In this document: positions 18,424-44,811 of the stretch, one piece after another
Position numbering within the stretch: the stretch's first letter is position 1
How the letters are laid out: every line of letters begins with the position of its first letter
Source of the DNA: Patescibacteria group bacterium
GTDB taxonomy: Bacteria; Patescibacteriota; Patescibacteriia; JAXHNJ01
NCBI GenBank assembly: GCA_034520665.1
Contig: JAXHNJ010000001.1
Coordinates: forward strand, 130,579-194,578
DNA length: 64,000 nt
Direction: 5' to 3'
Notes under the pieces: model-generated
Told to the model about the DNA's origin: nothing
Database searches by the model: none
The model's input: the letters and a program-made list of their open reading frames with translations, nothing else
Position numbers and translations under genes: made by a program

Positions 18424-18547
18424 AAGAATAAAAACAAGTCGAGATCGTCTTCGCCCTTTAATTTTCTTTTGACTTATTTCCTTGGTTCAAGATCAATTTC
18501 GGGCTTCGGCCGATAAAATCTTAATACTAAAATATTATTACATAGTG

Positions 18548-18640
18548 GGGTCGTCTAATGGTCCCGCACCCAATTCTCGTTTTACTCGAATGGGGACGGG
18601 ATAAATAGGAGGCCTGATTCTGGTTCAGGTAATCCTGGTC
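18548..18640 (+). pseudogene. Degenerate partial copy of tRNA-Gln (5' acceptor/D region plus anticodon arm) with a ~45-nt insertion in the D-loop region and no T-arm or 3' acceptor
   Basis: ggggtcgtctaatgg...aggcctgattctggttcaggtaat is identical to the matching parts of the downstream tRNA-Gln. It lacks ttcgaatcc and a 3' acceptor strand. Confidence 0.4.
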
Positions 18641-18761
18641 CGCCCGCCAAAAATTTCTCGATCCGGGGTCGTCTAATGGCAGGACGCCTGATTCTGGTTC
18701 AGGTAATCTTGGTTCGAATCCAAGCCCCGGAGAAATTTTTAGGCGGGTGAAAATCCTGGTC
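18631..18761. mobile_element. MITE-like element carrying tRNA-Gln: 10-bp direct repeats (aatcctggtc at 18631-18640 and 18752-18761) flank a 111-bp segment bounded by ~18-bp inverted repeats
   Basis: IR-L gcccgccaaaaatttctc (18642-18659) and IR-R gagaaatttttaggcggg (18732-18747) are reverse complements with 1-2 mismatches, and they extend the tRNA acceptor stem. Confidence 0.4.
18662..18732 (+). tRNA. tRNA-Gln (anticodon CUG)
   Basis: Cloverleaf: acceptor tccgggg/ccccgga, D-arm cgtc..gacg, anticodon stem cctga/tcagg with loop ttCTGgt, T-arm cttgg-ttcgaat-ccaag. U1:A72 plus G73 discriminator fit bacterial tRNA-Gln identity. CCA is not encoded. Confidence 0.85.
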
Positions 18762-19179: not shown

Positions 19180-19614
19180 ATGAATAATAAATGCAAACCA
19201 AAATTAATAAGTGCCTGTCTTTTGGGTATTAAATGCCGGTGGGATGCAAAATTTAAACCTTGCCAAAAAGCAATTGAATTATTTAAACAAGGCCAGGTTA
19301 TTCCCGTATGCCCGGAACAATTAGGAGGTTTGCCTACTCCTAGAATTCCCCAGGAGATTCAAAAAGACGGCAGAGTATTAAATAAAGAAGGGAGAGAAGT
19401 AACGGAGGAATTTAAAAAGGGAGCTAGCGAAACCTTAAGAATAGCCAAATTATTAGGAGTGAAAGAATTCATTGGTAAGTCAAAAAGTCCTTCTTGTGGT
19501 TTTGGCAAGACTTATGATGGTACTTTTTCGGGTACTTTAGTAAAAGGTAACGGAGTTACAGCAGATCTTTTATCTAAAAATGGTATAAAAGTAATAACGG
19601 AAAAAAATTTATAA
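19180..19614 (+). CDS. DUF523 family protein (YbbK/TudS-like)
   Basis: ISACLLGIKCRWDAK...VIPVCPEQLGGLPTPR...SPSCG matches the DUF523 Cys pattern. Confidence 0.65.
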   Translation: MNNKCKPKLISACLLGIKCRWDAKFKPCQKAIELFKQGQVIPVCPEQLGGLPTPRIPQEIQKDGRVLNKEGREVTEEFKKGASETLRIAKLLGVKEFIGKSKSPSCGFGKTYDGTFSGTLVKGNGVTADLLSKNGIKVITEKNL

Positions 19615-19619
19615 GGAAA

Positions 19620-20107
19620 TCATTACTCCTGGTGTCTGGGGTCCTCTTGTACTTCTTTTCAGTTTAGTTATTTACGAACCTCTGAAAAATTACTTCGAAA
19701 ATCTTGCCAACAAATACTTCTTTGCCAGTATTTACAACTACCAGGCTACTCTGGAAAAACTGGCCCAGGAACTGACTCATTCTATTGACTTAGACCAAAT
19801 CATTGACTCCATTGTCAAAACTATTAGAGAAACCATGAAACTGGACCGGACTGGTGTTTTATTATTTGACCAAGAAACCTATAATTACCAGGTTAAGAGT
19901 AATATTGGCTTTTCCGTAGCCAATGGTATTTCTCTAGTTAGAAATAACTTCCTCACTAATTATTTATTAAAAAAAAGAAAACCAGTTATTTACCAAGAAC
20001 TGGAGTCTTTAAAAAGTAACGGCCATGGTGATCGCTCAGAGATTGGCAAGCTTAAGGCTAATATGAAAAAAATTGAAGCGGCTTTGTGTTTGCCTTTGGT
20101 TAAATAA
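19620..20107 (+). pseudogene. Duplicated internal fragment (~490 bp) of the sensor histidine kinase gene; copy of 28940..29427
   Basis: Nucleotide alignment is colinear with high identity by eye (roughly 85-90%). ORF 19835..20107 translates to MKLDRTGVLLFDQETYNYQVKSNIGFSVANGISLVRNNFLTNYLL..., nearly identical to residues of the 28150..30420 protein. Confidence 0.8.
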
Positions 20108-20157
20108 TAAATAGTTTAAAGAGTTTTATTTTAGAAAAAAATTATCCTTTTTACTTT

Positions 20158-20185
20158 TGTAAAAAGAGGCATTTTATGGTATAAT
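20158..20185 (+). promoter_or_regulatory. Sigma70-like promoter with extended -10 (TTGTAA, 16 nt spacer, tgGTATAAT) upstream of the first cassette
   Basis: Same ttatggtataat motif as the promoter at 12751. Located 43 nt before ORF 20228. Confidence 0.45.
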
Positions 20186-20227: not shown

Positions 20228-21613
20228 ATGGCTCAAGGGTTAAAAAATAAAAAAATATTAATACTTGGAGGCACAGGTTTGGTTGGTAAAAATACGGTTA
20301 CCGTTCTTTTAGATCAAAAAGTTAAAAATATTGGAGTGGTTGGCTTAAAAAATGATAAGAATTGGAAATTTATTGAAAAAATTGAAAGAGATAAAAAGGT
20401 AAAGATAAAGAAATATAAAAATAATCTATTGTGGCCGTCATGGTTTAGTCAATCTTCTTTTAAAAAAAATACTAAGCAAAGTAATGTCCAATTAAAAAAT
20501 TTTCTTGCTTCCGATATAAAAAAGGATGAGGTTAAAAAAGAACCTCTCTATAAAATTATCCTTGATTTTTGTCCTGACTATATTATTGACAGTATAAATA
20601 CTCCTACCCAATGTTCTTATGCCAAGTTTTCATCAAGTATTATAGAGGGTATAGGAATGGGTTCTCTTCTTCTGCTTCGATACTATAAGATTTTATATCA
20701 TCTACTAAGCTATGATTTTTGGAAAAAGGAAAGAAAAAAAATTAATATTTCACAATACATAAAAATTGGTACGACCGGCATCGGTGGTATGGGTTTAGAT
20801 ATTCCCTTTACACACGGCGAAGAAAAGCCGTCACTTTCTCTCTTAAAAAAAGTGGCCCTGGCCGGTTCACAGACAAATATTTTATTTGCCATGCGTAATA
20901 GTCACAGAATTGCCAATATACAAGAGATTATTCCGACAACCTCTGTTTTTCAACTTACCGACTTTAATACCAGTCATAAGGAAATTGACGGCGGTGAAAG
21001 TCAGGGATACGCACTTGAAGAATTTCGTTTATTAACAAATCAGAGTCAAATGGGTGTTATTGACGCCCATGAGCTGGCGGAAATTATCATAAAAGCGCTG
21101 CAAAAAGGAAAAAGTCCTTATAACACTCTTGAGGCTCTGGCCCAGTCAGGAGTTGCCTGTTCAGATAAATCATTAAAAATGCGTTCTCGCATCCTTGATT
21201 CTTGGTGGCAAAAACAAAATAAAAGCGCCAAAGTAAGCGTGGCGCACGGAAATCTCGGTCCAAAACGAACTCGCAAACTTTTATTTGAACTTTTTATTTT
21301 ACTTGATTATTACCGTGTGAACAGAAAAGATTTTTGGCGTCTTTCACCACGGAAAATTCAAAAGCAAATTAAAGACAAAATTTCAAAAAACTCTTCATTA
21401 AAAGAAGAAATAAGGTTAGCCGATATGCGAGTATTGACTTCACCTCCCAAAAAACCCTCTGATAAATATATTGATCTCTCTACTAAAAACATAACAAAAT
21501 GGCGGAAAGCACTGCAGTCATTGGGGTTGGAGAAGAAAGATATTCCTGCCCAGGCCGGAGATATACTCTCACAATTAATTAAAAAATATCATGAGCTTAA
21601 GCATATACCATAA
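20228..21613 (+). CDS. NAD(P)-binding Rossmann-fold protein of unknown function; first gene of cassette 1
   Basis: N-terminal KKILILGGTGLVGKNTV is a GxxGxxG dinucleotide-binding motif. A second Gly-rich motif is IGTTGIGGMGLD. The last ~62 aa are duplicated as a stand-alone ORF at 24502..24690. Confidence 0.5.
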   Translation: MAQGLKNKKILILGGTGLVGKNTVTVLLDQKVKNIGVVGLKNDKNWKFIEKIERDKKVKIKKYKNNLLWPSWFSQSSFKKNTKQSNVQLKNFLASDIKKDEVKKEPLYKIILDFCPDYIIDSINTPTQCSYAKFSSSIIEGIGMGSLLLLRYYKILYHLLSYDFWKKERKKINISQYIKIGTTGIGGMGLDIPFTHGEEKPSLSLLKKVALAGSQTNILFAMRNSHRIANIQEIIPTTSVFQLTDFNTSHKEIDGGESQGYALEEFRLLTNQSQMGVIDAHELAEIIIKALQKGKSPYNTLEALAQSGVACSDKSLKMRSRILDSWWQKQNKSAKVSVAHGNLGPKRTRKLLFELFILLDYYRVNRKDFWRLSPRKIQKQIKDKISKNSSLKEEIRLADMRVLTSPPKKPSDKYIDLSTKNITKWRKALQSLGLEKKDIPAQAGDILSQLIKKYHELKHIP

Positions 21614-21668
21614 AAGTAATTTTATACTATGGGATTAATTTATTAGCTTATTTTTTATTTTTATATTT

Positions 21669-23225
21669 ATGATTAAAAAAAGTGACATATTCAAATTAAT
21701 TTATAGAAACTCATATAAGGATTTTATCAACTTTTATAATTTGTCTTCAGATAAGTTTTTTAATTTTTTAGTTACTGAATCTCCAGAAAAAATTGAAGAT
21801 TTAGGGCAAAAAATGGCCTTGAAGTTATTTCGCAAAGCCTCAAAGGAAGTGCCATCTTACAATAAGTTTTTAAAAGATAAGGCCTTTAATACTAAAAACA
21901 TTATAACAAAAAAAGAATTTAGCTCTTTACCTATTACTACCAAAAAAAATTATCTCAAGAAGTATGATTTAAATGATTTTTGTTGGAGTGGCAGTTTCCA
22001 GCAGATGAATTTAATTTCAGTAAGTTCCGGATCTACAGGCGAACCATTTTTTTGGCCGAGAGGTTTAGGTCTGGAATATGAAACGACGCTCGAATACGAA
22101 ATTATTCTTAAAAACTTTTTTAAGGCAGATAAAAATAAGACTCTATTTATTGTCGGCTACGCTATGGGAATGTATGTTGCCGGTGTATTTACACTCAATA
22201 GCTTGATGAATTTAATAAAAAAAGGATATCCGCTAACGGCTGTAACTCCTGGTTCTGATAGAGATTCGATACTACGAATTATTAAAAATATTGGTAAATA
22301 TTTTGATCAAGTTATAATTTCAGCTTACCCAGCTGTGCTAAAAGATGTGATTGATAAAGGAGTAAAAGAGAATTTAGGATGGGAAAAATATAATATTAAA
22401 TTTATCTCTGGTGGAGAGGGTTTCAGCGAAGAATTCAGAAAATATATTTATAAAAGAATTGGGGTAAAAAACTATTATAAAAGTTCGATTAACACTTACG
22501 GTTCAGCTGACGCTGCGATTCTTGGCCATGAAACGCCTTTATCAATTTACATTAGAAAACTCGTCTCGGAAAATAAAGAACTACGTAAAGCTTTGTTTAA
22601 AGACGAAAGACTACCCTCATTACTTCAATATTACCCTCCATTTAAATATTTTGAGGAAATTGATGGAAATTTAATTTTCACTACATACGGCGGTATTCCA
22701 TTAGTCAGATATTCTATTGGGGATACTGGAGGTGTTATTTCTTTTAATAAAATGACTGAAACACTGAAAAACTTTAATATTAATATTATAAAAGAAATGA
22801 CAAAAAATAAATGTGGAGATGTTATTACTCGACTACCTTTTGTTTACTTATTTGGCAGAGCAGATAATACAAAAATATTTTACGGGGCAAATATTTATCC
22901 GGAACATATCAAAAAATGTCTTGAACAGAAAGATATCATGCATATAGTTACTGGAAAATACTTTATTGACATCCTACTTGACAGAAATCATAATCAGACT
23001 TTTTATGTGGCTGTTGAATTAGCTCACGGTATAAAAATAAACAAGAAATTAAAAAATAAAATAGCTAATACTATACATCATAATTTGCTTAAAATTAATC
23101 GTGAATATGAATATCTTCTGCGTACAGTCGGTCATCGTATTTTTCCCTCGGTAGAATTATTTACCTATGGTGACCCAAAATATTTTTCATCAAAAATAAA
23201 GCCAGAATATGTCAAAAAAGAATAA
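21669..23225 (+). CDS. Adenylate-forming enzyme, PaaK / coenzyme F390 synthetase / CapK-like (ANL superfamily); cassette 1
   Basis: ISVSSGSTGEPFFWPR (AMP-binding P-loop-like motif), ...YGSADAAILGHETP..., ...VRYSIGDTGGV.... About 45% identical to the paralog at 25518..27086. Confidence 0.65.
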   Translation: MIKKSDIFKLIYRNSYKDFINFYNLSSDKFFNFLVTESPEKIEDLGQKMALKLFRKASKEVPSYNKFLKDKAFNTKNIITKKEFSSLPITTKKNYLKKYDLNDFCWSGSFQQMNLISVSSGSTGEPFFWPRGLGLEYETTLEYEIILKNFFKADKNKTLFIVGYAMGMYVAGVFTLNSLMNLIKKGYPLTAVTPGSDRDSILRIIKNIGKYFDQVIISAYPAVLKDVIDKGVKENLGWEKYNIKFISGGEGFSEEFRKYIYKRIGVKNYYKSSINTYGSADAAILGHETPLSIYIRKLVSENKELRKALFKDERLPSLLQYYPPFKYFEEIDGNLIFTTYGGIPLVRYSIGDTGGVISFNKMTETLKNFNINIIKEMTKNKCGDVITRLPFVYLFGRADNTKIFYGANIYPEHIKKCLEQKDIMHIVTGKYFIDILLDRNHNQTFYVAVELAHGIKINKKLKNKIANTIHHNLLKINREYEYLLRTVGHRIFPSVELFTYGDPKYFSSKIKPEYVKKE

Positions 23226-24372
23226 TTTCTACAAACCACTATTACTTAACCCAAGAAGTAAAAATAACTTAGGAAAAATAAATAAGTTTTTAAAGACAGC
23301 AAATTTTATAGTGGATGAAATTGATAATCAAATATCTGAACTTTTTTATATCCGTCATCCAAAATCAATATTTAGAAAAGTAAAAAAGTCTGAACTGTCA
23401 AATTTTAGAAAATCATTTTATGAACAACAAGATAAAAAATTATTTGGTACTTGGGTATATTACCCCTGGAATAATCATCTTGTCCATTTTTTACCGGAGA
23501 GTTTACATACAGAAATTAGAACCTCCCGTAATAGGAATCTAATAACCAAAAAGGAACAAGAAAAATTTTATAATGCATCAATAGCAATAGCTGGTTTGAG
23601 CGTAGGTAATAGTTCGGTCGCTAATCTTCTGTATTCAGGAGGGCCGAAGAATATGCACTTAGCGGATTACGACCATTTAGCGGCTTCAAACATAAATAGA
23701 ATTAGAACTACTTTTATTAATGTGGGAAAGAAAAAAACTGATCTGAGTGCACAAGAAGTTTACGAGGTTAACCCATATAGTAATTTAAAATTATTCAGAA
23801 ATGGCCTCAATATAAAAAATCTAGATAATTTTCTATTAAAACCAAGATCAGTTGATGTTTTAATAGAAGAAATGGATAATTTATACTTAAAAGTACAAAT
23901 AAGACTTTTAGCTCGCAAACATCGCATCCCAGTTATTATGGCAGCAGATAATGGAGATAATATTATTGTAGACATAGAAAGGTTTGATTTAGAACCGAAT
24001 CGACCGCTTTTACACGGTGATGTACCAGAGAAAGAATTACTAGCAATTACGCCGGAAACGCCAAAAATTGAAGCGGCAAGAATTATTTCTCGTTGGGTGC
24101 ATCCCGAAAATGTGGTACCAAGAATGCAAGGTTCTCTTTTGGAAATTGGAAAGTCTCTTTATACCTGGCCACAACTCGGGAACGCCGCTTTTTTAGCTGG
24201 ATGTGCAATGTCCTATTTAGCCAGAAAAATAATTTTGGAAGAATCTCTTAAGTCAGGCAAATTCAACCTTTCTCTAGACCACGTTCTAAATCCAGAATAT
24301 CAATCAAAAGATTTTCTTTTAAAGAAAAAAAAATCAACAAATGAATTTAAAAAGGTGTTAAATATACCATAA
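23209..24372 (+). CDS. ThiF/MoeB/E1-like (ubiquitin-activating-enzyme superfamily) protein with a ~110-aa conserved N-terminal extension; cassette 1
   Basis: IAIAGLSVGNSSVANLL (Rossmann GxGxxG-like) ...DYDHLAASNINRI is the E1-like nucleotide-binding core. The N-terminal W.YPWN..LVH.L...IRTSRNR.LIT..EQE is shared with the paralog. Overlaps the upstream gene by 17 nt. Confidence 0.65.
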   Translation: MSKKNNFYKPLLLNPRSKNNLGKINKFLKTANFIVDEIDNQISELFYIRHPKSIFRKVKKSELSNFRKSFYEQQDKKLFGTWVYYPWNNHLVHFLPESLHTEIRTSRNRNLITKKEQEKFYNASIAIAGLSVGNSSVANLLYSGGPKNMHLADYDHLAASNINRIRTTFINVGKKKTDLSAQEVYEVNPYSNLKLFRNGLNIKNLDNFLLKPRSVDVLIEEMDNLYLKVQIRLLARKHRIPVIMAADNGDNIIVDIERFDLEPNRPLLHGDVPEKELLAITPETPKIEAARIISRWVHPENVVPRMQGSLLEIGKSLYTWPQLGNAAFLAGCAMSYLARKIILEESLKSGKFNLSLDHVLNPEYQSKDFLLKKKKSTNEFKKVLNIP

Positions 24373-24423
24373 TGGACCTATATCTTCTTATTATTATAAG
24401 TCTCTTTAATTTCTGGTTAGGAA

Positions 24424-24690
24424 TAGCGGAAAATTCAAAAGCAAATTAAAGACAAAATTTCAAAAAACCCTTCATTAAAAGAAGAAATAAGGTTAGCCGA
24501 TATGCGAGTATTGACTTCACCTCCCAAAAAACCCTCTGATAAATATATTGATCTCTCTACTAAAAACATAGCAAAATGGCGGAAAGCACTGCAGTCATTG
24601 GGGTTGGAGAAGAAAGATATTCCTGCCCAGGCCGGAGATATACTCTCACAATTAATTAAAAAATATCATGAGCTTCGAACCATTCCTTAA
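24424..24690 (+). pseudogene. Duplicated 3' fragment (~265 bp) of gene 20228..21613 (copy of 21353..21613); contains stand-alone ORF 24502..24690
   Basis: Near-identical nucleotide sequence. The ORF translates to MRVLTSPPKKPSDKYIDLSTKNIAKWRKALQSLGLEKKDIPAQAGDILSQLIKKYHELRTIP, against ...MRVLTSPPKKPSDKYIDLSTKNITKW...HELKHIP at the C-terminus of the 461-aa protein. Confidence 0.75.
24502..24690 (+). CDS. Stand-alone 62-aa ORF corresponding to the C-terminal module of the cassette-1 Rossmann protein
   Basis: Own ATG, with a possible weak RBS (aagg, about 10 nt upstream). Intact frame despite being a duplicated fragment. It sits between the two cassettes. Confidence 0.4.
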   Translation: MRVLTSPPKKPSDKYIDLSTKNIAKWRKALQSLGLEKKDIPAQAGDILSQLIKKYHELRTIP

Positions 24691-24727
24691 AATTTATTAA
24701 TTTTAATAAGCAATTAATCGAATAATT

Positions 24728-25531
24728 ATGGAATACAAAATCAAAAAAGACTGGTGGAAAAGCCAAGGTGGTTATTTTAATAATATCTACCTTGAGGGAG
24801 ATAATTCATCGGAAGGATTTTTAAATTCACCTCTTGATTTAGACAATAGAACAAAAAAAGAAAGCGAGGGAGTGCAAAGACTCTGCTGTTTAAATAAAGG
24901 CGACAAGATTTTAGATTGCCCTTCAGGATATGGAAGACATTCATTAACTCTTGCGGCTATGGGCTTTGATGTGGTGGGAGCGGATATTAATGAGCAATTT
25001 TTAGCAGTTGCTAATAAAGGTTTACAGAAAGCAAAATTACCCAATATACGCTTTATAAAGAAAGATATGCGGGAATTGGATTTTAAAAATGAATTTAACG
25101 CGGTTATTAATATGTTTTATTCTTTTGGTTTTTTTGAAGATGAAACCGATAACGTAAAAGCACTCAAAAATTTTTATGCCGTATTGAAACCGGGTGGTAA
25201 ATTTTTAATGCATACGCATGTTACTGTACCGAAATTCATGAAGGGATTAATAAAAACTCATGAAATCAGAACCTTAAAAACAGAAAAAAAACTTGAATTA
25301 TTTAGACAGTATAATAAAGCAATTAAGCGTGAAGAAGGTCAATGGTTTTTATTGGATGGAAAAATAAAAAAGGAAGCCAGCGCTCCATACTCCATGAGAA
25401 TTTATACTGACAAAGAATTTCAGACCTTATGTAAAAATGTTGGCTTTACGAAAGTTAAAATATATGGTGACTGGGATGGTACTGAATATAAAGATAAGTC
25501 TGAACTAATGATTGTAGTTGCGACAAAATAA
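24728..25531 (+). CDS. Class I SAM-dependent methyltransferase; first gene of cassette 2
   Basis: ILDCPSGYGRHSLTLAAMG (motif I), DVVGADIN (motif II acidic), FNAVINMFYSFGFF, LKPGGKF (motif III). Confidence 0.8.
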   Translation: MEYKIKKDWWKSQGGYFNNIYLEGDNSSEGFLNSPLDLDNRTKKESEGVQRLCCLNKGDKILDCPSGYGRHSLTLAAMGFDVVGADINEQFLAVANKGLQKAKLPNIRFIKKDMRELDFKNEFNAVINMFYSFGFFEDETDNVKALKNFYAVLKPGGKFLMHTHVTVPKFMKGLIKTHEIRTLKTEKKLELFRQYNKAIKREEGQWFLLDGKIKKEASAPYSMRIYTDKEFQTLCKNVGFTKVKIYGDWDGTEYKDKSELMIVVATK

Positions 25532-27086
25532 TATGATTTTAGATAAAAATAAAATTTATAAAAATTTGTTTTCTCTAAAAGACTGGGGTACTTATTACGG
25601 AAGCGACATAAATCGTATTTCTAAAAGCCTTGTCCAGGCTAATCCCGAAATCTTTGAGGAAGAAAGTAAAAATCGCGCTTTAACATTTTTTCGTCGGGTA
25701 AGCTCTCAGGTTCCAGCCTATAAAGATTTTTTGAAAAAGAATAATATTGATCCTGAAAAAATAAAAACCGCCAGTGATTTAAAGCAAGTTCCATGGATCG
25801 ATAAAGAGAATTATTTAAAGCAATATCCGATGGAATCTCTTTGTTGGCATGGGAAAATGACCGCCCCTATTATTTCGGCTAGTTCTGGTTCTACAGGTAA
25901 TCCATTTTTCTGGCCACGGTCTCCTGAAATAGAAAGAGAAACCACTTTTATCTATGAGCTTTTTTTAAAGGAGATATTTGAGATTAACAAATATAAAACA
26001 CTTCTAATAAATGGTTTTTCACTTGGTATTTACATTGGTGGAACATTCACTCTTAACTGTTCGATGAGGATCTCGCAGAAGGCATATCCATTGACAATAA
26101 TTACTCCGGGAATCAATAAAAATGAGATATTAAATTCTATTAAGAAACTACATCGGTATTTTGATCAGATAATAATAAGTGGCTACCCTCCTTTTATTAG
26201 AGATATTATTGATGATGGTCAAAAAATGGGTATCAACTGGAAAAAAATTAGATTAAAATTTTTTTTCGCCTCGGAATCTTTAAGTGAAGAATTTAGATCT
26301 TATATTTATAACAAAGTGGGTATTAGCGATAAGAGTTACTACTATTCATCAATGAATCTTTATGGTACTGCTGACGCAGCTATTATGGGTCATGAAACTC
26401 CCTTAAGTACATTTGTGAGAAGACTTTTTAGCAATAACAAAGATAAATGTAAAGAATATTTTGGAACAGATTATGTGCCGTCTCTTAATCAATATTATCC
26501 AATGTTTAAATATATAGAAATTGATAATAATGAAATTATTCTTACATCTTTTAACACAGAGATTCCTTTAGTACGTTACAATATTCATGATCGAGGAAAA
26601 GTGTTAACTTATCATAAGATAATTAAGCTCATAGAGTCATTTGGTTACACAGAAAAAAAGGCAGAAAAAATTACCGGAAGATGTTTTTGGCACTTACCTT
26701 ATGTCTACTTATTTGGCAGAAGTGATTTTACAGTAACTGTTTATGGTCTTAATATTTATCCAGAAAATATTAAATTAGCTCTAGAATCAAAAGAATTAAT
26801 TAGTTTAACCACGGGGAAATTTGTGTTAGAAACAGCAAATAGAGCCAGTGATCAGAGTCAATACTTATTAATTCACATAGAAATTTTGAAAGATATTCCA
26901 ATTAATAAAGAATTAGAGAAAAAGTTCCGAGAAATAATTGTTAAATCTTTAAGAAAAGTCAATTTGGAATACAATCATTTATATCAGGCAATTAAGGAAC
27001 GAGCTATTCCTAAAATTGACTTGAGAAAACAAGGAGACAAAACTTATTTCGCGCCGGCAATTAAACAAAAATGGGTAAAAAATTAA
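25518..27086 (+). CDS. Adenylate-forming enzyme, PaaK/CoF390-synthetase-like (paralog of 21669..23225); cassette 2
   Basis: ISASSGSTGNPFFWPR, YGTADAAIMGHETP, VRYNIHDRGKV. Overlaps the upstream MTase gene by 14 nt. Confidence 0.65.
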   Translation: MRQNNMILDKNKIYKNLFSLKDWGTYYGSDINRISKSLVQANPEIFEEESKNRALTFFRRVSSQVPAYKDFLKKNNIDPEKIKTASDLKQVPWIDKENYLKQYPMESLCWHGKMTAPIISASSGSTGNPFFWPRSPEIERETTFIYELFLKEIFEINKYKTLLINGFSLGIYIGGTFTLNCSMRISQKAYPLTIITPGINKNEILNSIKKLHRYFDQIIISGYPPFIRDIIDDGQKMGINWKKIRLKFFFASESLSEEFRSYIYNKVGISDKSYYYSSMNLYGTADAAIMGHETPLSTFVRRLFSNNKDKCKEYFGTDYVPSLNQYYPMFKYIEIDNNEIILTSFNTEIPLVRYNIHDRGKVLTYHKIIKLIESFGYTEKKAEKITGRCFWHLPYVYLFGRSDFTVTVYGLNIYPENIKLALESKELISLTTGKFVLETANRASDQSQYLLIHIEILKDIPINKELEKKFREIIVKSLRKVNLEYNHLYQAIKERAIPKIDLRKQGDKTYFAPAIKQKWVKN

Positions 27087-28153
27087 TCAACAATAAAATA
27101 CAAGATAAATTCAAGGTTTTTAGTTATCAAAAATCTCGTAATATAATTGAAAAAATCAGCAAAATAAAGGGTGTTAAAATAATTGATGAGTTTGATGAGC
27201 AGATAATTGAATTGTATAAATTTTTTAATCCGGGGGTATCTTTTAATCAAGCTCAGTATAATTTATTCAAGAAAAAATATTTTTCTAAAAGATCGTCAAA
27301 AGAGAAGGGAAGATGGATCTGGTATCCATGGAACAAAAGTCTGGTTCACCTTTTGTCGCCGAAGGATTTTCAGAGAATTCGTACTTCAAGAAATAGATAT
27401 CTCATTACTGATCAGGAGCAAGAAGAATATCGAAAAGCATGTGTGGCTATTGCCGGGGTTTCTGTAGGGTCAAACATTGCGATAACACTGCGTTTACAAG
27501 GAGGCGCCCAACATCTCAAACTTTCAGATTTTGATATATTAGAACTTTCAAATACAAATCGGATAACGTTAGGAGTGCCTTATCTTGGAGAGGAGAAAAT
27601 TGATATTGTTAAACAAAAAATATTAGAAATTGATCCATACACAAAGCTATCTTTATTTCCAAAGGGTTTAAATTCAAATAATATAAGACAATTTTGTCAG
27701 GGATCAGACATTGTTTTTGATGAGGTGGACAATTTACAAATTAAAGTACTTTTACGAAAATATGCCCGTAAATTTAAAAAACCGCTAATTATGCTTACTG
27801 ATAATGATGACGGAGTGTTGGTTGATTATTACCCATATCATAAGAAAATAGATGTCCCATTATTTCACGGTTTACCTGATAATAAAGTACTCAATTTGAT
27901 TAATGCTAAAAAACCTCCAACAAAATCAGAAATGGTTAAGCTAAGTTCTCAAGTAGTTGGTAAGCAAAATATTTCTCCGAGAATGATGAAATCTCTTAAA
28001 GCGGTAGGCAAGACACTTGTATCATGGCCTCAATTAGGTACTGCGGCTATTTTTTCCGGTGTTATTGGTGCTTATATGACCCGGATGATTATTAATGGGT
28101 ATGATTTTCGCTTTCGCCGGCGATTGATTCGTTTAAATGATCAACTTATATGA
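27071..28153 (+). CDS. ThiF/MoeB/E1-like protein (paralog of 23209..24372); cassette 2
   Basis: VAIAGVSVGSNIAITLRLQGG...LSDFDILELSNTNRI is a classic ThiF-family motif. The N-terminal W.YPWN.SLVHLL...IRTSRNRYLIT extension is conserved. Overlaps its neighbours by 16 nt and 4 nt. Confidence 0.7.
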   Translation: MGKKLINNKIQDKFKVFSYQKSRNIIEKISKIKGVKIIDEFDEQIIELYKFFNPGVSFNQAQYNLFKKKYFSKRSSKEKGRWIWYPWNKSLVHLLSPKDFQRIRTSRNRYLITDQEQEEYRKACVAIAGVSVGSNIAITLRLQGGAQHLKLSDFDILELSNTNRITLGVPYLGEEKIDIVKQKILEIDPYTKLSLFPKGLNSNNIRQFCQGSDIVFDEVDNLQIKVLLRKYARKFKKPLIMLTDNDDGVLVDYYPYHKKIDVPLFHGLPDNKVLNLINAKKPPTKSEMVKLSSQVVGKQNISPRMMKSLKAVGKTLVSWPQLGTAAIFSGVIGAYMTRMIINGYDFRFRRRLIRLNDQLI

Positions 28154-30420
28154 ATATATTATTCACTATTTTCACAGCAACATTAGGCATTATTATAGGT
28201 TATCTCGTTATTAAACAAAACCCACGAAACGCCATGCATTTGGCATTTATGGTATTTTGTGTTTCTTTAGCATTTTGGGCAGTTGCCAATTATTTTTCAA
28301 TTTCAACTCAAGAAGTTTCAAACATTCTTTTTTGGATGAGAGCTGTAATGATTTTCGCTGTAATTATTTGTATTTCATTTTTTTTATTTATTCATACATT
28401 TCCTAAGTCGAAGATTAATCTTCAAAAGAAATATCTCTTTCCTTTGTTATTAGCTGGAGTTCTAACTTGTATTGTGTCCTTTTCGCCTCTACTTTTTTCT
28501 GAAGTAACATTTGACGAACAAGGAAATAGATCACCAGTAGTTAAACCCGGTATGTTATTATTTCTTATTGTAGCCGTTGGTTCCTTACTTTCAGCATTTA
28601 TTATTCTAATTAAAAAAGTTAAACGTTCCACTGGTATTACTAAGATGCAGCTGCGATTTATTCTTGCTGGTACTTTTATTATGTTTTTTTGCATCCTTTT
28701 ATTTAATTTGGTTTTACCAGTAATATTTAAGATTTCCACTTTTGTTAATGCGGCTCCATTTTTTATATTACCTTTTATTCTAGCAGTTTTTTATGCTATC
28801 ACCCGCCATCGTCTCATGGACATCCGCCTGGTGGTCAAGCGCACTGCCATCTATGCTTCCACCGTTATTTTCCTCCTTCTCCTCGCCCTCGGTCTTTATT
28901 GGCTGGAAATGACTTATTTTAAGGAAATCATTCCTCCGGGTGTTTGGGGGCCAATTGTCCTTTTGCTCGGCTTAATCCTCTTTGAGCCATTAAAGAATTA
29001 CCTAGAAAGAATTGCCAACAAATACTTCTTTGCCAGTATTTACAACTACCAAGCTACTCTGGAAAAACTGGCCCAGGAACTGACTTATTCTATTGATTTA
29101 GACCAAATTATTGATTCTATTGTTAAAACCATCCGGGATACCATGAAACTGGACCGGACTGGTGTTTTATTATTTGACCAAGAAACCCATAATTACCAGG
29201 TGAAAAGTAATATTGGCTTTTCCGTGGCTAACGGTATTTCTCTAGTCAGAAACAACTTTCTTACCAATTACCTTTTAGAAAAAAGAAAACCAGTTATTTA
29301 CCAGGAACTGGAGTCTTTAAAAAGTAATCAGGGTGAAAAGTCGGAAATTGGTAAATTAAAGGCTAATATGAAAAGAATTGAAGCGGCCTTGTGTCTGCCT
29401 TTGATTATTAAAAATAAATTGATCGGTATCATTGTTTTGGGCGAGAAAATATCTAAGGACGCCTACACTAAAGAAGATCTACAGCTTCTTGATTCTCTAA
29501 CCAACCAAGCCTCTATCGCTTTAGAAAACGCCCGGTTGTACCAGCAGGTGCAGGACTTTACCAAAACTCTTCAGCAGAAAGTGGATGAGCAAACCCGGGA
29601 TATTAAGCAAAAGAATGTTGATCTTAAAAAAATGGCCAAAGAAGTAAAAGAGAAAAATGTCCACTTGGAGAAAGTTCTTAAAATTCAGTCGGAGTTTTTG
29701 GATATTTCTTCGCATCAACTCCGGACCCCGGTCTCGGTCATTAAAGGAGTATCTTCAATGCTGGCTCAGGGTGAGATGGAGAAGTTGCCTCCAGAAAAAA
29801 AGAAAGAATTCTACCAAAGTGTTTATGATAAAAGCGTGAAATTGGAGAAAATTATCAATGATATCTTAAGGGCTTCGGAGTTTGACGCGGTTAAATTTAG
29901 TTTAGACGATAAAACAGCTCTAATTTCACCGGAAGAAGTGATTGAGGAAGCGGTTAAAGAAGCAGAGTTGGAAGCGAAACAGAGAAAAATAAATTTAATC
30001 TGGCAAAAACCGGTTTCTCCCTTGCCGAAAATTTATGCGAAAAAAAAGTATTTAGTGGAAGCGATAGGTAATCTTTTGTCGAACGCCCTGAAATATACCC
30101 CTTCTCTTGTCCAAGTTAAGGAAGCCCGGAGTAAAAGAAGAAAAAAAGGCGTAGTTATGGTTGAGGCGGAAAAAGAGAAAGATAATATTCTGATTAAGGT
30201 TTCTGACAACGGTATTGGTATTCCCAAGAAAGAAATAAGTAAGCTTTTTACTAAGTTTGCTCGGGCCGAAAATGCTACGGATATGTACACAGACGGCAGC
30301 GGGCTGGGGCTTTTTATTGTTAAAGAAATTGTAAGTGGCCACCAGGGCCAGGTCTGGCTCGAAAGCAAGTTGGGCAAAGGCACCACTTTTTACATTAGTT
30401 TGCCGATTGCTAAAAAATAA
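28150..30420 (+). CDS. Membrane sensor histidine kinase (N-terminal polytopic sensor domain, GAF-like domain, HisKA, HATPase_c)
   Basis: About 7 N-terminal TM helices. H-box is SSHQLRTPVSV. The ATPase domain has DNGIGIPKKEISKLFTKF and GSGLGLFIVKEIV (N, G1/G2 boxes). The start overlaps the E1-like gene (ATGA). Confidence 0.85.
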   Translation: MNILFTIFTATLGIIIGYLVIKQNPRNAMHLAFMVFCVSLAFWAVANYFSISTQEVSNILFWMRAVMIFAVIICISFFLFIHTFPKSKINLQKKYLFPLLLAGVLTCIVSFSPLLFSEVTFDEQGNRSPVVKPGMLLFLIVAVGSLLSAFIILIKKVKRSTGITKMQLRFILAGTFIMFFCILLFNLVLPVIFKISTFVNAAPFFILPFILAVFYAITRHRLMDIRLVVKRTAIYASTVIFLLLLALGLYWLEMTYFKEIIPPGVWGPIVLLLGLILFEPLKNYLERIANKYFFASIYNYQATLEKLAQELTYSIDLDQIIDSIVKTIRDTMKLDRTGVLLFDQETHNYQVKSNIGFSVANGISLVRNNFLTNYLLEKRKPVIYQELESLKSNQGEKSEIGKLKANMKRIEAALCLPLIIKNKLIGIIVLGEKISKDAYTKEDLQLLDSLTNQASIALENARLYQQVQDFTKTLQQKVDEQTRDIKQKNVDLKKMAKEVKEKNVHLEKVLKIQSEFLDISSHQLRTPVSVIKGVSSMLAQGEMEKLPPEKKKEFYQSVYDKSVKLEKIINDILRASEFDAVKFSLDDKTALISPEEVIEEAVKEAELEAKQRKINLIWQKPVSPLPKIYAKKKYLVEAIGNLLSNALKYTPSLVQVKEARSKRRKKGVVMVEAEKEKDNILIKVSDNGIGIPKKEISKLFTKFARAENATDMYTDGSGLGLFIVKEIVSGHQGQVWLESKLGKGTTFYISLPIAKK

Positions 30421-30468
30421 AAATAACCTTAATTTAAAAGATAAGAAATCATAAAGAGAATAAAAAAA

Positions 30469-30852
30469 ATGGGAAAAAAACCTAAAATCTTACTAATTGA
30501 AGATGACCGAGACCAAATCAAGATGTATCAGTTTAAGTTTGAGAAGGAGGGCTTTATTTTTCTGGCTGGCCGAAGTGGAGAAGAGGGGATTAAAATAGCC
30601 AAAGAACAAAATCCGGATCTTATTCTTCTTGATTTGGTTCTAATTAACGAAAACGGAATAAAAGTTTTAGAAAAATTGAAAAAGGATAAAGCCCTGAAAG
30701 ACATCCCGGTTATAATGCTGACCAATCTGGCTAAAAATTCCATGAAAGAAAAAAGCAAAGAATCCGGCGCCACAGATTTTTTAGTTAAAACCCAGATTGA
30801 TCCCTCTGAATTGATAAAAAAAGTTAAACAGATAATTAGTGAAAGTGGCTAA
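30469..30852 (+). CDS. Stand-alone response regulator receiver domain protein (CheY-like)
   Basis: KILLIEDDRD...DLILLDLVL...PVIMLTNL. Conserved Asp pocket and phospho-acceptor Asp (LLDL). 49 nt downstream of the kinase gene. Confidence 0.85.
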   Translation: MGKKPKILLIEDDRDQIKMYQFKFEKEGFIFLAGRSGEEGIKIAKEQNPDLILLDLVLINENGIKVLEKLKKDKALKDIPVIMLTNLAKNSMKEKSKESGATDFLVKTQIDPSELIKKVKQIISESG

Positions 30853-30937
30853 GTATAAGCCGAATACTTTTTATCCCTGTACCAAAAATCCGGCCTGCTA
30901 AAATATTGGTTCTATAATCTAATTTTAATTAAAAAAA

Positions 30938-31942
30938 ATGGCTATAGCTTCTCAAGAATTAGGAAAAGACTTTGAACAGGAGGAAAGAAAAATGCTTCTC
31001 CAGGAAACTTCTCCTGAGGTTTTTGATACAGAAAAACTTTCTAAATTTGCTGAGGAAGAGCTTAAATTGAAAGAAATAAAAAAAGCAACCAAAGGTTTAC
31101 TTGAAAAATATGTGGTAGAATATGGCTCGGAAGAAAAATCTTATTATCTTTCCAATAATTCCAATCATGATATGGAAAGAGTCTATCAAGATATGCTTTC
31201 TATTTATGAACAAATGCCAAAAGGGTCAGTACCAAGACCAGTTGAATATTTAGGTGATTCCCAATCAGTTTTTTACGAAGAGGTGAAGGGAAAAAATATT
31301 ATGGAAAAAATTGGACAAATGCCGGAAGAGAAAAAAGTGGCACTATTTAAAAATATTGGCGAACGTATGAAAGAATTTCACAGCATGGATATTAATAGAT
31401 TTGAACAGTCTAAAAAGATTCCAGATTCGGCCCTAGAAAATATTATGCAAACAGTGAGTATAAAATGTTTTGGGATTATTGAAAACAGAGATAGAAAGTT
31501 TAATCAGGAATTGAAGGCTCTTTACGAACAAATTATAAAAATGGAAAAAGAAATAAAAGAAAATTCTGAATTGGTCGTAAATCATGGTGATTTACATCCT
31601 GAGAATATTATTCAAGATGAAGAAGGTAGGGTGGGACTCATGGATTTAACTGATATTATGATTTCTTCGCGAGCCAAAGACATTGGTGGATTTTTTGAGC
31701 AGACGCGGGTAATGTTTAAGGAGAAAGGAGTAATAGTAGAGAAAAATAAGCTCAAAGAATACGAAAATTCTTTTTTAGAGGGATATAATAAAGATATAGA
31801 TAAAAAAGAAATTGATTTTTATCGAGCCTGGCAGTTATGGCGTAACGCTATGTATTGTGGCACTAAGAAAGACCCTGATTTTAATGAAGCTCGAAGAGAA
31901 TTAAGGGAAGCAACGGAAATAATTAAAGAAATTTCAGTTTAA
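30938..31942 (+). CDS. Phosphotransferase enzyme family protein (APH / choline-kinase-like kinase fold)
   Basis: VNHGDLHPENII...GLMDLTD resembles the Brenner catalytic motif (HGDxxxxN) and the DxD-type metal site of APH-like kinases. Confidence 0.55.
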   Translation: MAIASQELGKDFEQEERKMLLQETSPEVFDTEKLSKFAEEELKLKEIKKATKGLLEKYVVEYGSEEKSYYLSNNSNHDMERVYQDMLSIYEQMPKGSVPRPVEYLGDSQSVFYEEVKGKNIMEKIGQMPEEKKVALFKNIGERMKEFHSMDINRFEQSKKIPDSALENIMQTVSIKCFGIIENRDRKFNQELKALYEQIIKMEKEIKENSELVVNHGDLHPENIIQDEEGRVGLMDLTDIMISSRAKDIGGFFEQTRVMFKEKGVIVEKNKLKEYENSFLEGYNKDIDKKEIDFYRAWQLWRNAMYCGTKKDPDFNEARRELREATEIIKEISV

Positions 31943-31947
31943 ATTTT

Positions 31948-32406
31948 ATGAATTTTAAAGAATTATCAATATTTTTAGCAAAAGCCAAGCAGAATACCTA
32001 TGCCAGTAGCGGTGAAGGGGGAGAGGAAGTATTAGCCGATGGGGCTAAGGAATTTTACTTTAAAGAAAATTCTTTTTATTATCGTGACCGTTATTATGGT
32101 TATAATCCATTTAGTGGGCAAGAAGTTGTTTTTTACAATAAAAAGTCAATTTGGACTATGAATTATTATGGAAAAGTTTTATCAGATAAAATTTCACCAA
32201 AAGAGATTTATAATTTTCTTAAAACGGCCTTATCAAAGGTCGATAAAAATAAGCCTTTCCGGGGGGCTTGTGATTTAATCAATGATAATTTTGAATATAA
32301 AAATAAAGCCAAGGGTAATTTAGCAGAATTTAGCGGCCGGGAAGAAATTTACTATAAAAAAAATTTAGTCTATAAACTAGATTATCACGGCGGATTGATT
32401 AATTAA
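31948..32406 (+). CDS. Hypothetical protein
   Basis: 152-aa ORF starting 6 nt after the kinase-like gene. No family recognised. Confidence 0.4.
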   Translation: MNFKELSIFLAKAKQNTYASSGEGGEEVLADGAKEFYFKENSFYYRDRYYGYNPFSGQEVVFYNKKSIWTMNYYGKVLSDKISPKEIYNFLKTALSKVDKNKPFRGACDLINDNFEYKNKAKGNLAEFSGREEIYYKKNLVYKLDYHGGLIN

Positions 32407-42964: not shown

Positions 42965-43519
42965 TTAATAATTTTTAGGATTATTGCGATCTAAATTCCA
43001 TTTAGAAGGATTAAGAATAATATATTCTCTAACATTATCTAGACTTTTTTCATTGTCAATAATTCGGTCATAAAAAGATCTTTGCCATCTAAATTCAGGA
43101 AATCCATTTTGATGGATTAATTTTGAAGAAGTTGTTTTAAAGGCGCCGATAATTTCTGTTATTGGTTTAATTTTTATTCCCCGTAGATGCGGGTCGCGAC
43201 CCGCATCTACGCAGGGATATTTATTAATTTTTGTATCGCGACCCGTACCTACGCAGGAAGAATCAATAATAATAATTCCATGAAAATGATTGGGCATAAT
43301 AATGTATTTATCCAGGCTTATATAAGAATATTGTTTTTCTAGCCATTGCCATTGTCTTTTTACTATTTTGCCGTATTTATTTAAAGACATCTTATTTTCT
43401 AATATTTTACCAAAGATATTTGTTTTTTGTTTCGTGCAAATTGTAATAAAATAATATCCCTCACTAGAATAATCATAATGAGGTAATCTCATAGATTTAT
43501 ATTTTTTATATGGTGACAT
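42965..43519 (-). CDS. REP-associated tyrosine transposase (RAYT, IS200/Y1-transposase-like) carrying an in-frame 75-bp REP insertion
   Basis: HuH motif IMPNHFHGIII and C-terminal FRWQRSFYDRIIDNEKSLDNVREYIILNP (Y1_Tnp signature). Nucleotides 43183..43257 are a near copy of the 74-bp REP unit at 42757, translated in frame as ...GTGRDTKINKYPCVDAGRDPHLRG.... Confidence 0.7.
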   Translation of the reverse strand: MSPYKKYKSMRLPHYDYSSEGYYFITICTKQKTNIFGKILENKMSLNKYGKIVKRQWQWLEKQYSYISLDKYIIMPNHFHGIIIIDSSCVGTGRDTKINKYPCVDAGRDPHLRGIKIKPITEIIGAFKTTSSKLIHQNGFPEFRWQRSFYDRIIDNEKSLDNVREYIILNPSKWNLDRNNPKNY

Positions 43520-43675
43520 TTACAAAAAACCTTTATTGTAAGCCACCAAAGAAATTTGAATGGTCGGGGTACTGGGATTTATCCGACAAAGCCTGCCTGT
43601 GGCAGACAAGGCGGATCCCCTAAAGGGGGAAACTCTTAATTTCTTATTTTTAAAAAAAATGATACTAAAATAATT

Positions 43676-43715
43676 TGGTCGGGGTAGCCTCCCTTCGGGA
43701 GACGACCTCATCGTC
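43676..43715 (-). repeat. Partial duplicate of the 3' end of tRNA-Pro (acceptor 3' strand plus the 5' side of the T-arm region, with the T-loop replaced by a ctcccgaagggag hairpin)
   Basis: tggtcggggtagcc and cgacctcatcgtc are identical to 43734-43747 and 43761-43773 of the tRNA gene. Located 18 bp from the tRNA 3' end. Confidence 0.6.
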
Positions 43716-43733
43716 ACTTGTCTGCCATGGGCT

Positions 43734-43809
43734 TGGTCGGGGTAGCCAGACTTGAACTGGCGACCTCATCGTCCCGAACGATGCGCGCTACCAACTGCGC
43801 CATACCCCG
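43734..43809 (-). tRNA. tRNA-Pro (anticodon CGG), CCA encoded
   Basis: Minus-strand sequence CGGGGTA-TG-GCGC-AGTTGGTA-GCGC-G-CATCG-TTCGGGA-CGATG-AGGTC-GCCAG-TTCAAGT-CTGGC-TACCCCG-A-CCA. Same architecture and identity elements (C1:G72, A73) as E. coli tRNA-Pro(CGG). Confidence 0.85.
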
Positions 43810-43963
43810 ACTCTGTCCATCATTTTCTAACGGGGATACCCCGTTAATCTGCCATAATATTAGCAATTTAGCCGCTCATAGTCAATTATTAATAACTTGA
43901 CCAAATTATTAAAAAACCTTATAATTTTAGTATAAAATCTATAGATAGAAAATATCTTTTTTT

Positions 43964-44668: not shown

Positions 44669-44811
44669 AGGAAGGCACTAAAAGTAACAAAGGCTTCAGA
44701 AGTATCAAAAGAGCTTCTCAAGGAATTGAGAAGTTTTATTTTTGAGGGAAAAGGTGGTAGTATGAATTTAATGGGTCAATAATTAATTGAATTAAATAAT
44801 TCTAATAAGCT

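Follow-up and report, generated by a model that had tools for sequence, protein, structure and literature searches.

What is made by a bacterial operon in which two paralogous gene pairs, each encoding an adenylate-forming ligase followed by a ThiF-like protein, run directly into the gene for a membrane sensor kinase? This question is raised by positions 20,228 to 30,852 of a 64,000-nucleotide stretch of DNA from a Patescibacteria group bacterium (assembly GCA_034520665.1, contig JAXHNJ010000001.1, positions 130,579 to 194,578 of the forward strand), which was analysed as a whole, is referred to here as the window, and supplies the coordinates used throughout. Patescibacteria, also known as CPR (Candidate Phyla Radiation) bacteria, are ultra-small, uncultured and episymbiotic, and to our knowledge there is little information on their signalling. 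With moderate confidence we propose that the product of the module is a small heterocycle built from an aromatic amino acid, and that the module shares a transcript with the genes for a receiver and a membrane-bound sensor kinase. The genes and gene fragments of the locus are as follows.

19609-20112, plus strand: truncated copy of HK, covering the last transmembrane helix, the linker and most of the GAF domain
20228-21613, plus strand: R, SDR-fold oxidoreductase of 461 amino acids (aa) with an N-terminal Rossmann motif
21669-23225, plus strand: P1, PaaK-family adenylate-forming ligase of 518 aa
23209-24372, plus strand: E1a, stand-alone ThiF-like protein of 387 aa, of the TrzS/Rv1355c type, with a Pfam ThiF match
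24427-24718, plus strand: duplicated 3' end of R plus a spacer of 26 nucleotides (nt), a recombination scar between both cassettes
24728-25531, plus strand: M, class I S-adenosylmethionine (SAM)-dependent methyltransferase of 267 aa
25533-27086, plus strand: P2, PaaK-family ligase of 517 aa from the ATG at 25533 (522 aa if the TTG at 25518 is used)
27071-28153, plus strand: E1b, second TrzS-type ThiF-like protein, 360 aa, with a Pfam ThiF match
28150-30420, plus strand: HK, histidine kinase of 756 aa with HisKA_7TM, GAF, HisKA and HATPase_c domains (Pfam)
30469-30852, plus strand: RR, CheY-like single receiver of 127 aa without an output domain (Response_reg, 78 bits)

The order is (HK fragment)-R-P1-E1a-(R 3' fragment)-M-P2-E1b-HK-RR, with all eight open reading frames (ORFs) on the same strand and each found where an initial annotation, made from the letters of the DNA, had placed it. 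P1 and E1a overlap by 17 nt, P2 and E1b by 16 nt and E1b and HK by 4 nt, the HK start overlapping the E1b stop codon (ATGA), and these overlaps together with the domain matches bear out the tight coupling of the cassettes to a sensor kinase and receiver. Of the overlaps of 4-17 nt that had been listed, these three stand; a fourth, of 14 nt between M and P2, probably does not, since P2 more probably starts at the ATG at 25533, 1 nt past the M stop codon, than at the TTG at 25518. The ATG is preferred because the gene call on an independent contig also gives 517 aa and because of the start context, and the M/P2 junction is therefore tight, probably with no overlap. P1 and P2 are 42% identical over 513 aa, slightly less than the ~45% first estimated, and E1a and E1b are 39% identical, which together with family searches confirms two paralogous cassettes of an adenylate-forming enzyme and a ThiF-like protein. 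Both of the motifs by which the cassettes had been recognised, SSGSTGxPFFWPR in the ligases and W.YPWN..LVH.L...IRTSRNR.LIT..EQE in the ThiF-like proteins, are present, and the cassette leaders are, as described, a Rossmann/SDR protein (R) and a class I SAM methyltransferase (M).

On sequence grounds we propose that the ThiF-like proteins, collectively E, are ATP-dependent cyclases of the TrzS/Rv1355c type. In NCBIfam, E1a matched model NF005901, which stands for Rv1355c (TrzS), with 301 bits over model positions 6-345 of 722, and E1b matched it with 252 bits over positions 22-327 of 722, both below the curated cut-off that is weighed further on, while the next-best models (PRK08223, PRK14851 and ThiF) gave 65-79 bits and the ThiF, MoeB, TcdA and SAMP-E1 models all remained at or below 79 bits, with 35 bits for TcdA. 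As neither protein carries a fused oxidase, only the ThiF half of NF005901 is matched. The N-terminal extension of ~110 aa, which had been thought unusual, lies within this model, and its RTSRNR.LIT..EQ motif lines up with the Arg-finger segment (RYSRNR) that PDB chains of other ThiF-like proteins carry. An alignment of 30 sequences revealed R107/N108, G129/S131/G133, D153/D155, S160/N161/N163/R164, K176 and D223 to be invariant in the E family, and no invariant or near-invariant Cys and no CxxC motif were present. The invariant segments align with ThiF-like PDB chains, and the E1 adenylation site is complete, with its Arg-finger segment, Gly loop, DxD, SNxNR, Lys and the Asp of the DN motif. 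By profile, the nearest solved structures are TcdA tRNA-t6A cyclodehydratases, with MccB and PaaA as distant PDB matches (27-33 bits).

Natural oxazolones and their ThiF-like cyclases were discovered between 2021 and 2025 (10.1101/2020.06.11.147165, PMC10404671, PMC12856293). TrzS makes N-acyl tryptazolones together with the N-acyltransferase TrzA, and its ThiF part carries out the ATP-dependent cyclisation of an N-acyl amino acid (PMC12856293); the same ATP-dependent cyclisation is performed for tyrazolones by TyzB/TyzC and OxzB (PMC10404671, 10.1101/2020.06.11.147165, PMC12596934). TrzS, TyzB and OxzB all act on N-acyl aromatic amino acids and yield oxazolones (PMC12856293, PMC10404671, 10.1101/2020.06.11.147165), and according to a 2025 review no ThiF-like enzyme other than OxzB is known to have a small molecule as its substrate (PMC12596934). 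Oxazolones do not survive acid or alcohols (PMC12856293). The cyclase of the Patescibacteria locus, and the oxidase that accompanies it in relatives, are by predicted family of this already known kind (OxzB/TyzBC/TrzS), though under the equivalog cut-off.

Relatives of E were found in 341 genomes in a scan of one genome per species, and the best 80 loci were retrieved, which mostly carried Patescibacteria labels (7 loci were labelled as other phyla and 13 were unclassified). At these loci, cited by L-number, ORFs were called afresh and labelled using phmmer and hidden Markov models (HMMs), unlabelled neighbours were clustered, and all counts refer to 79 E genes. A P-type ligase was found within five genes of E in 76/79 cases and directly upstream in 64, and a seven-transmembrane (7TM) histidine kinase within five genes in 52. 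A protein of ~355 aa occurs near 54 of the E genes and directly downstream of 49; it is an Acg-family FMN oxidoreductase of the nitroreductase superfamily, here called the flavin oxidase, and matches the C-terminal half of NF005901. At L029 both parts are fused into a single protein of 738 aa, which covers positions 24-713 of the 722 in the model. The order E-(flavin oxidase)-(methyltransferase)-HK is seen for 46 of the 79 genes, and coupling to a sensor, which had been called unusual, is what the family generally shows. Upstream of P, relatives usually have the gene of a precursor enzyme, with an ELFV-type dehydrogenase near E in 23/79, an aromatic ammonia-lyase in 8/79 and R in 4/79. Spacing is tight throughout: the median gaps between dehydrogenase and P, P and E, E and flavin oxidase, flavin oxidase and HK, and E and HK are all at most 7 nt, with many pairs overlapping, and the kinase follows the preceding biosynthetic gene at a median of 4-7 nt. 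Loci reached from P or R homologues displayed the same module. The initial annotation had asked for a comparison of the neighbourhood in relatives, where a lack of conservation was to count against a dedicated system; the module is kept.

One locus differs in its composition. L090 (GCA_964610055.1, CAZSUC010000001.1; 2266-9919) lacks a ThiF-like gene, and its P-type ligase gene runs straight into that of a 7TM-GAF kinase; upstream on the opposite strand lie genes for a nitroreductase (326 aa) and a YcaO protein (620 aa). These two, an azoline-type cyclodehydratase/dehydrogenase pair, may be a non-orthologous replacement for E and the flavin oxidase.

The ligase P has what characterises the ANL/PaaK superfamily, namely a two-domain fold, an SSG(S/T)TG P-loop and a C-terminal catalytic Lys. 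Its conserved motifs are SSGSTGxP, YGSAD, GD, GRxD and the C-terminal Lys, with S119/G121/G124 and D352 invariant and S120, S122, D281 and K511 nearly so. An AF2 model of P1 (pLDDT 88, pTM 0.87) gave PaaK1/2 and BT_0428 as top Foldseek matches (E ~1e-21; probability 1.00 to PaaK1/2), followed by AjiA1, a 2-hydroxyisobutyryl-CoA ligase, ClxA and 6siw, a 'PaaK family AMP-ligase'. P1 and P2 scored 40-52 bits on the PaaK models TIGR02155 and NF041878 (40-48 bits for P1 on NCBIfam PaaK), against cut-offs of 646 and 700, and lie below the equivalog level. We identified no N-acyltransferase among the recurrent neighbour families (five put through Pfam, none of the nine largest) or in the window, where no targeted acyltransferase search was made. 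Because no conserved N-acyltransferase accompanies the module, the acylation step most likely falls to P, which we read as most likely an ATP-dependent, amide-forming acylating enzyme.

As to the precursor, R carries an extra helical C-terminal domain, PF27054 'Beta_methylindole_red_C' (precomputed Pfam family). The name is taken from a reductase of indolmycin biosynthesis, whose substrate is 3-methyl-indolepyruvate and whose product, indolmycenic acid, enters an ATP-dependent coupling that builds an oxazolinone ring (PMC8246080). We use the family name only as a lead, and the term 'beta-methylindole-3-pyruvate reductase' had no mention in the literature searched. R is presumably an NAD(P)-dependent ketoreductase acting on an arylpyruvate-type precursor. 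M, which matched Methyltransf_25/31/11 and Ubie_methyltran with no equivalog-level NCBIfam match and none specific to Ind1 or Ind7, is presumed to be a tailoring enzyme. A reductase, a methyltransferase and an ATP-dependent coupling enzyme form a coherent set. In relatives, the ELFV dehydrogenase had the Trp dehydrogenase ScyB as its best NCBIfam match (291 bits) and the lyase had the tyrosine ammonia-lyase FlxA (606 bits); neither a dehydrogenase of this type nor a lyase is encoded in the window.

Two further observations concern these enzymes. PF27054 proteins of ~565 aa are common in Ignavibacteria, Bacteroidota, Gemmatimonadota and Chloroflexota, and at the one such locus checked (L092, 6001-7698) the gene stands alone amid housekeeping genes. 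At eight loci (e.g. L076, 4218-5147) a protein of ~309 aa with weak methyltransferase similarity, cluster C5, is encoded between the flavin oxidase and HK; it may be a tailoring methyltransferase analogous, and unrelated, to M.

For the substrates, the amide bond made by P and the type of ring we infer the following pathway. R, with M as tailoring enzyme, would produce an aryl carboxylic acid from an aromatic amino acid or from its keto acid, a step for which relatives would use the ScyB-like dehydrogenase or the tyrosine ammonia-lyase in place of R. P would then adenylate the aryl acid and join it to an amino acid, an ATP-paid substitute for the acyl-CoA-dependent TyzA, TrzA and OxzA. E would adenylate the free carboxylate of the resulting N-acyl amino acid, and the amide oxygen would close an oxazolone-type ring, which in most relatives the TyzC/Acg-type flavin oxidase would desaturate. 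The window clade appears to have lost this oxidase, and its products would be saturated or otherwise different rings, to which M would add a methyl group. Finally, the 7TM(-GAF) kinase and single-domain receiver would sense the product or control its synthesis, as an autoinducer-like circuit. The pairing of P and E suits this scheme, as two ATP-dependent carboxylate activations are exactly what amide formation followed by cyclodehydration needs when no acyl-CoA is used. P1-E1a and P2-E1b may make two separate compounds or may both work on one scaffold.

The last step of the pathway bears on signalling. The 7TM kinase is found within the operon across deep Patescibacteria lineages, and single-domain receivers of 123-169 aa also adjoin the module in L002, L004, L006, L009, L010 and L089. 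In Gottesmanbacteria-type loci (L004/L005/L009-L011; ~5279-18041 in L004) the P-E-HK module sits between pilB/pilC-like genes with a receiver and a run of N_methyl pilin-like genes, while in L089 (11897-13527) it adjoins pilM/N/O, which makes type IV pili a possible output of the two-component pair. Genes for a synthase and its membrane receptor kinase are laid out together in CqsA/CqsS, LuxM/LuxN and agrBDCA, and the putative synthase genes of the Patescibacteria likewise adjoin those of a polytopic membrane kinase and a receiver. This likeness is one of linkage only; unlike the CqsA, LuxM and agr synthases, to which they have no sequence relationship, P and E accompany a kinase with a HisKA_7TM sensor (PF16927). 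The authors who described TrzS noted that oxazolones resemble signalling molecules, with their role unresolved, and roles in stress or as antimicrobials are among those put forward (PMC12856293). That the product of the operon is sensed by its own kinase is possible, with the balance leaning somewhat against it. The fuller circuit, self-contained and carried by many Patescibacteria, in which a ligase and a cyclase, accompanied or not by the oxidase, would turn aromatic amino acids into an oxazolone-type signal, the 7TM kinase is its receptor and single-domain receivers pass the signal to type IV pili or other host-interaction machinery, is tentative and on present evidence somewhat unlikely. 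Our literature search on quorum sensing in Patescibacteria returned only unrelated papers. If the circuit is real, it would be the first autoinducer-like system proposed for episymbiotic Patescibacteria, and the first assigned biological role, as signals, for the natural oxazolones of Mycobacterium tuberculosis and other bacteria.

Several points weigh against the proposal of an oxazolone-type metabolite with a signalling role. E1a and E1b score below the curated cut-off of NF005901, 476 bits, and fall outside strict equivalog membership, and even the fused homologue at L029 stays under it at 452 bits. P is nearest in fold to genuine CoA ligases, at 15-18% identity, and this likeness does not tell an amine from a CoA acceptor. 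No flavin oxidase is encoded in any of the six frames of the window, and since 5(4H)-oxazolones in saturated form are chemically labile, the true product of the window enzymes may be a different one. One line of support, the co-variation of the kinase with the enzymes, is itself weakened: distances between 7TM domains correlate with those of P (r = 0.63) and of E (r = 0.49) about as closely as P does with E (0.51), but shared phylogeny confounds these correlations, which are suggestive only. An in-operon kinase, moreover, can merely regulate its operon on an unrelated cue.

This last point leads to the alternative that survives best, which we nevertheless hold unlikely: the chemistry is the same, and the product is no signal, having instead a protective or structural role as a pigment, antioxidant, antimicrobial or envelope lipid-like compound, with the kinase switching on the operon in answer to an external cue. 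It is common for a two-component system to control a biosynthetic operon next to it. ScyB and FlxA, which the precursor enzymes resemble, belong to pigment pathways (scytonemin and flexirubin, respectively), and the role of oxazolones is itself unresolved, with the stress and antimicrobial proposals fitting this alternative (PMC12856293). However, the kinase lies within the operon in 46/79 cases, its start often overlapping the last biosynthetic stop codon, a layout typical of synthase/receptor pairs; the receivers are single domains with no DNA-binding output, a poor fit to simple transcriptional control; and the module is embedded in type IV pilus clusters in several lineages.

It is improbable, in our view, that P is an ordinary aryl-acid CoA ligase, serving an unidentified acyltransferase or a catabolic route from an aromatic amino acid via arylpyruvate or arylacetate to a CoA thioester, with E acting on another substrate, for example on tRNA in the manner of TcdA or on some other carboxylate. 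A dehydrogenase or lyase followed by an aryl-acid ligase also starts catabolic and phenylpropanoid-type routes, phenylacetate-CoA ligases are what P matches best in both structure and HMM comparisons, and the nearest solved relatives of E are TcdA enzymes. Yet the ligases reach a small fraction of the PaaK equivalog cut-offs, neither paa or other catabolic genes nor an acyltransferase recur around the E loci, and P and E are adjacent, often overlapping, in 64/79. E is also much closer to TrzS than to TcdA (301 against 35 bits), and a TrzS-type oxidase is its neighbour or fusion partner in most relatives.

Least probable by far is that E adenylates the C-terminus of a small protein or peptide, as in the sulfur-carrier/thiocarboxylate pathways (PDTC, thioquinolobactin) or the MccB/PaaA-type tailoring to which the initial annotation had likened it: the Pfam ThiF domain with intact adenylation motifs, the distant matches to MccB and PaaA, and the N-terminal extension that these two also carry ahead of their ThiF domain would suit it, but the TrzS-model scores of 301 and 252 bits against at most 79 for ThiF/MoeB, the lack of an invariant Cys or CxxC in the family, the oxidase of the relatives, the lack of any plausible GG-ending carrier ORF in or near the locus, the identity of the flanking small ORFs as HK and R fragments, the lack of any conserved ORF family of 15-70 aa in or around the operons of the 79 E genes, and the lack of rhodanese, JAB and E2 genes among the recurrent neighbour families and loci with Pfam read all speak against it. 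The check for a conserved small ORF had been called for by the initial annotation, which had also reported, correctly, that the locus holds no ThiS/ubiquitin-like protein, JAB, E2 or precursor peptide. Anti-phage defence of the Cap2 or E1-E2 type was considered separately and rejected, with E giving generic E1 matches only (16-36 bits) in PADLOC and P and R none.

We return to the oxazolone-type pathway and to how it compares with described systems, namely the oxazolone synthetases OxzAB (Pseudoalteromonas rubra), TyzACB (Rv2336-Rv2338c) and TrzAS (Rv1356c-Rv1355c; Mycobacterium tuberculosis). The E proteins share the TrzS type, N-terminal region included, and keep the adenylation motifs intact, down to the conserved Asp of the E1 adenylation motif; most Patescibacteria relatives carry an Acg/TyzC-type flavin oxidase after, or fused to, E; and their precursor enzymes point to aromatic amino acids, as in the tyrazolones, phenazolones and tryptazolones. 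In contrast to these synthetases, a PaaK-family ligase takes the place of TyzA/TrzA/OxzA (76/79), the acyl donor is probably an aryl acid from an operon enzyme rather than a fatty acyl-CoA, the operon includes a 7TM histidine kinase, the window clade is without the oxidase (64-kb window), and the hosts are Patescibacteria and not Actinomycetota or Pseudomonadota.

The indolmycin pathway of Streptomyces griseus, with its C-methyltransferase Ind1, ketoreductase Ind2 and coupling enzymes Ind3/Ind6, offers a set analogous to M, R and P of the window, and likewise takes an indolepyruvate-derived acid to a five-membered N,O-heterocycle (PMC8246080). It differs in several respects. A PLP (pyridoxal phosphate) oxidase or imine reductase for a dehydroarginine partner was not identified among the recurrent neighbours, for which no specific search was made, no tryptophanyl-tRNA synthetase resistance gene was seen among the window ORFs scanned, and ring closure here would use a ThiF-like enzyme, which indolmycin biosynthesis does not. 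Ind3 is probably a member of the PaaK family; the literature searched gave no family for it. A second set of likely analogues, AjiA1, ClxA and the 6siw enzyme, shares the PaaK fold of P (Foldseek E ~1e-16) at 12-16% identity; these are benzoxazole-linked enzymes that form ester or amide bonds by coupling aryl-adenylates directly to a second small molecule without CoA, and they offer a precedent for such a transfer by a PaaK-type enzyme en route to a heterocycle. Unlike them, P is ~90 aa longer and has a ThiF-like partner instead of an amidohydrolase-type cyclase. For E, the nearest solved structure by profile, TcdA/CsdL (tRNA t6A cyclodehydratase), is an E1-like enzyme that adenylates a carboxylate beside an N-acyl/carbamoyl group and closes a five-membered ring (PMC12596934). 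Unlike E, TcdA is of ~270 aa, is without the N-terminal region and acts on tRNA.

The initial annotation had held that the system fits no described one. This does not apply to the cyclase family, which has been described since 2021, but it does to the remainder: the PaaK-type partner, the in-operon precursor enzymes, the kinase coupling, the Patescibacteria distribution and the oxidase-less duplicated form had no description in the literature searched, and a combined search for CPR, ThiF and PaaK returned nothing relevant. The same cyclase, mostly with the same oxidase, is widespread in Patescibacteria, and its linkage to a kinase makes the idea of oxazolones as signals testable and hints at possible cell-cell or symbiont-host communication in these bacteria. 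For enzymology, a PaaK-family ligase that forms amides would be new, as would the oxazolone-like scaffolds to be expected of the module, and the oxidase-less, duplicated version in the window predicts further chemical variants.

How the two cassettes came to stand in tandem can be read in part from the two gene fragments, which the initial annotation had overlooked. The first, 19609-20112, is 84% identical in nucleotide sequence to 28917-29419 and stays open for 165 codons, its product being 87% identical to HK residues 257-419; it lacks both the 7TM start and the kinase core and is probably what is left of a second kinase gene upstream. The second, 24427-24718, is 94-96% identical to 21350-21639, spanning the last 264 nt of R and the 26-nt spacer, and translates to the last 88 codons of R. 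The small ORFs 19835-20107 and 24502-24690, which had come into question as carrier or precursor genes, were rejected as such, being parts of these HK and R fragments. Independent short-read contigs (run SRR26473340) equal window positions 21569-24456 and 24646-28980 at 100%. Their ends fall within the repeats, which confirms the joint of E1a with the R fragment and demonstrates that the repeats are real.

Among the relatives, L008 and L093 have a single R-P-E-HK cassette with a further 7TM kinase gene upstream of R, and the single cassette of L089 has its R gene in the opposite orientation. Identity to the L008 counterparts is 64-75% for P1, E1a and R, but only ~40-43% for HK. In a set of 47 P-E-HK loci, drawn from species-representative genomes and from contigs found via exact protein look-up, E1b had no relative above ~41% identity and P2 none above ~43%, and a metagenome scan contained no close E1b relatives. 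The nearest relatives of the window (L002, L004, L008-L011, L089, L091 and L093) are also without the flavin oxidase. From these comparisons the tandem layout would have arisen via recombination between paralogous cassettes, which would have truncated one R copy and one kinase copy and cost cassette 1 its own kinase. A single-crossover insertion at the 3' end of R is one possible event that would yield this layout.

Turning to the surroundings, the locus is flanked by housekeeping genes (DnaX, DnaJ, Dus, CorA and UppS) and GC content is flat at ~33% across the window, on which grounds a mobile element or genomic island was rejected. A promoter/terminator scan found 57 promoter-like sites where 53.6 were expected; R is preceded by a TG-extended -10 site (20157-20185) and RR is followed by a hairpin (30846-30862), positions that fit a single transcription unit but prove nothing. 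Directly 3' of RR, at 30938-32406, lie genes for an APH/choline-kinase-like phosphotransferase (334 aa) and a DUF5680 protein (152 aa), the adjacency of which to the module is not kept at other loci.

Further away, the region 13322-15901 encodes a protein of 859 aa with VirD4/TrwB-type coupling-protein domains (TrwB_AAD_bind, T4SS-DNA_transf and TraG-D_C) in surroundings that are otherwise housekeeping. At 42965-45414, two IS200/Y1-transposase-like ORFs (42965-43519 on the minus strand and 44812-45414 on the plus strand) enclose a tRNA-Pro gene (43734-43809) and an undecaprenyl-diphosphate synthase gene (43964-44668). Finally, direct repeats of 35-36 nt, 74-92% identical and resembling tRNA 5' segments, occur at 18547-18732, where they adjoin and overlap tRNA-Gln(CTG) at 18662-18732 and possibly reflect a partial tRNA duplication.

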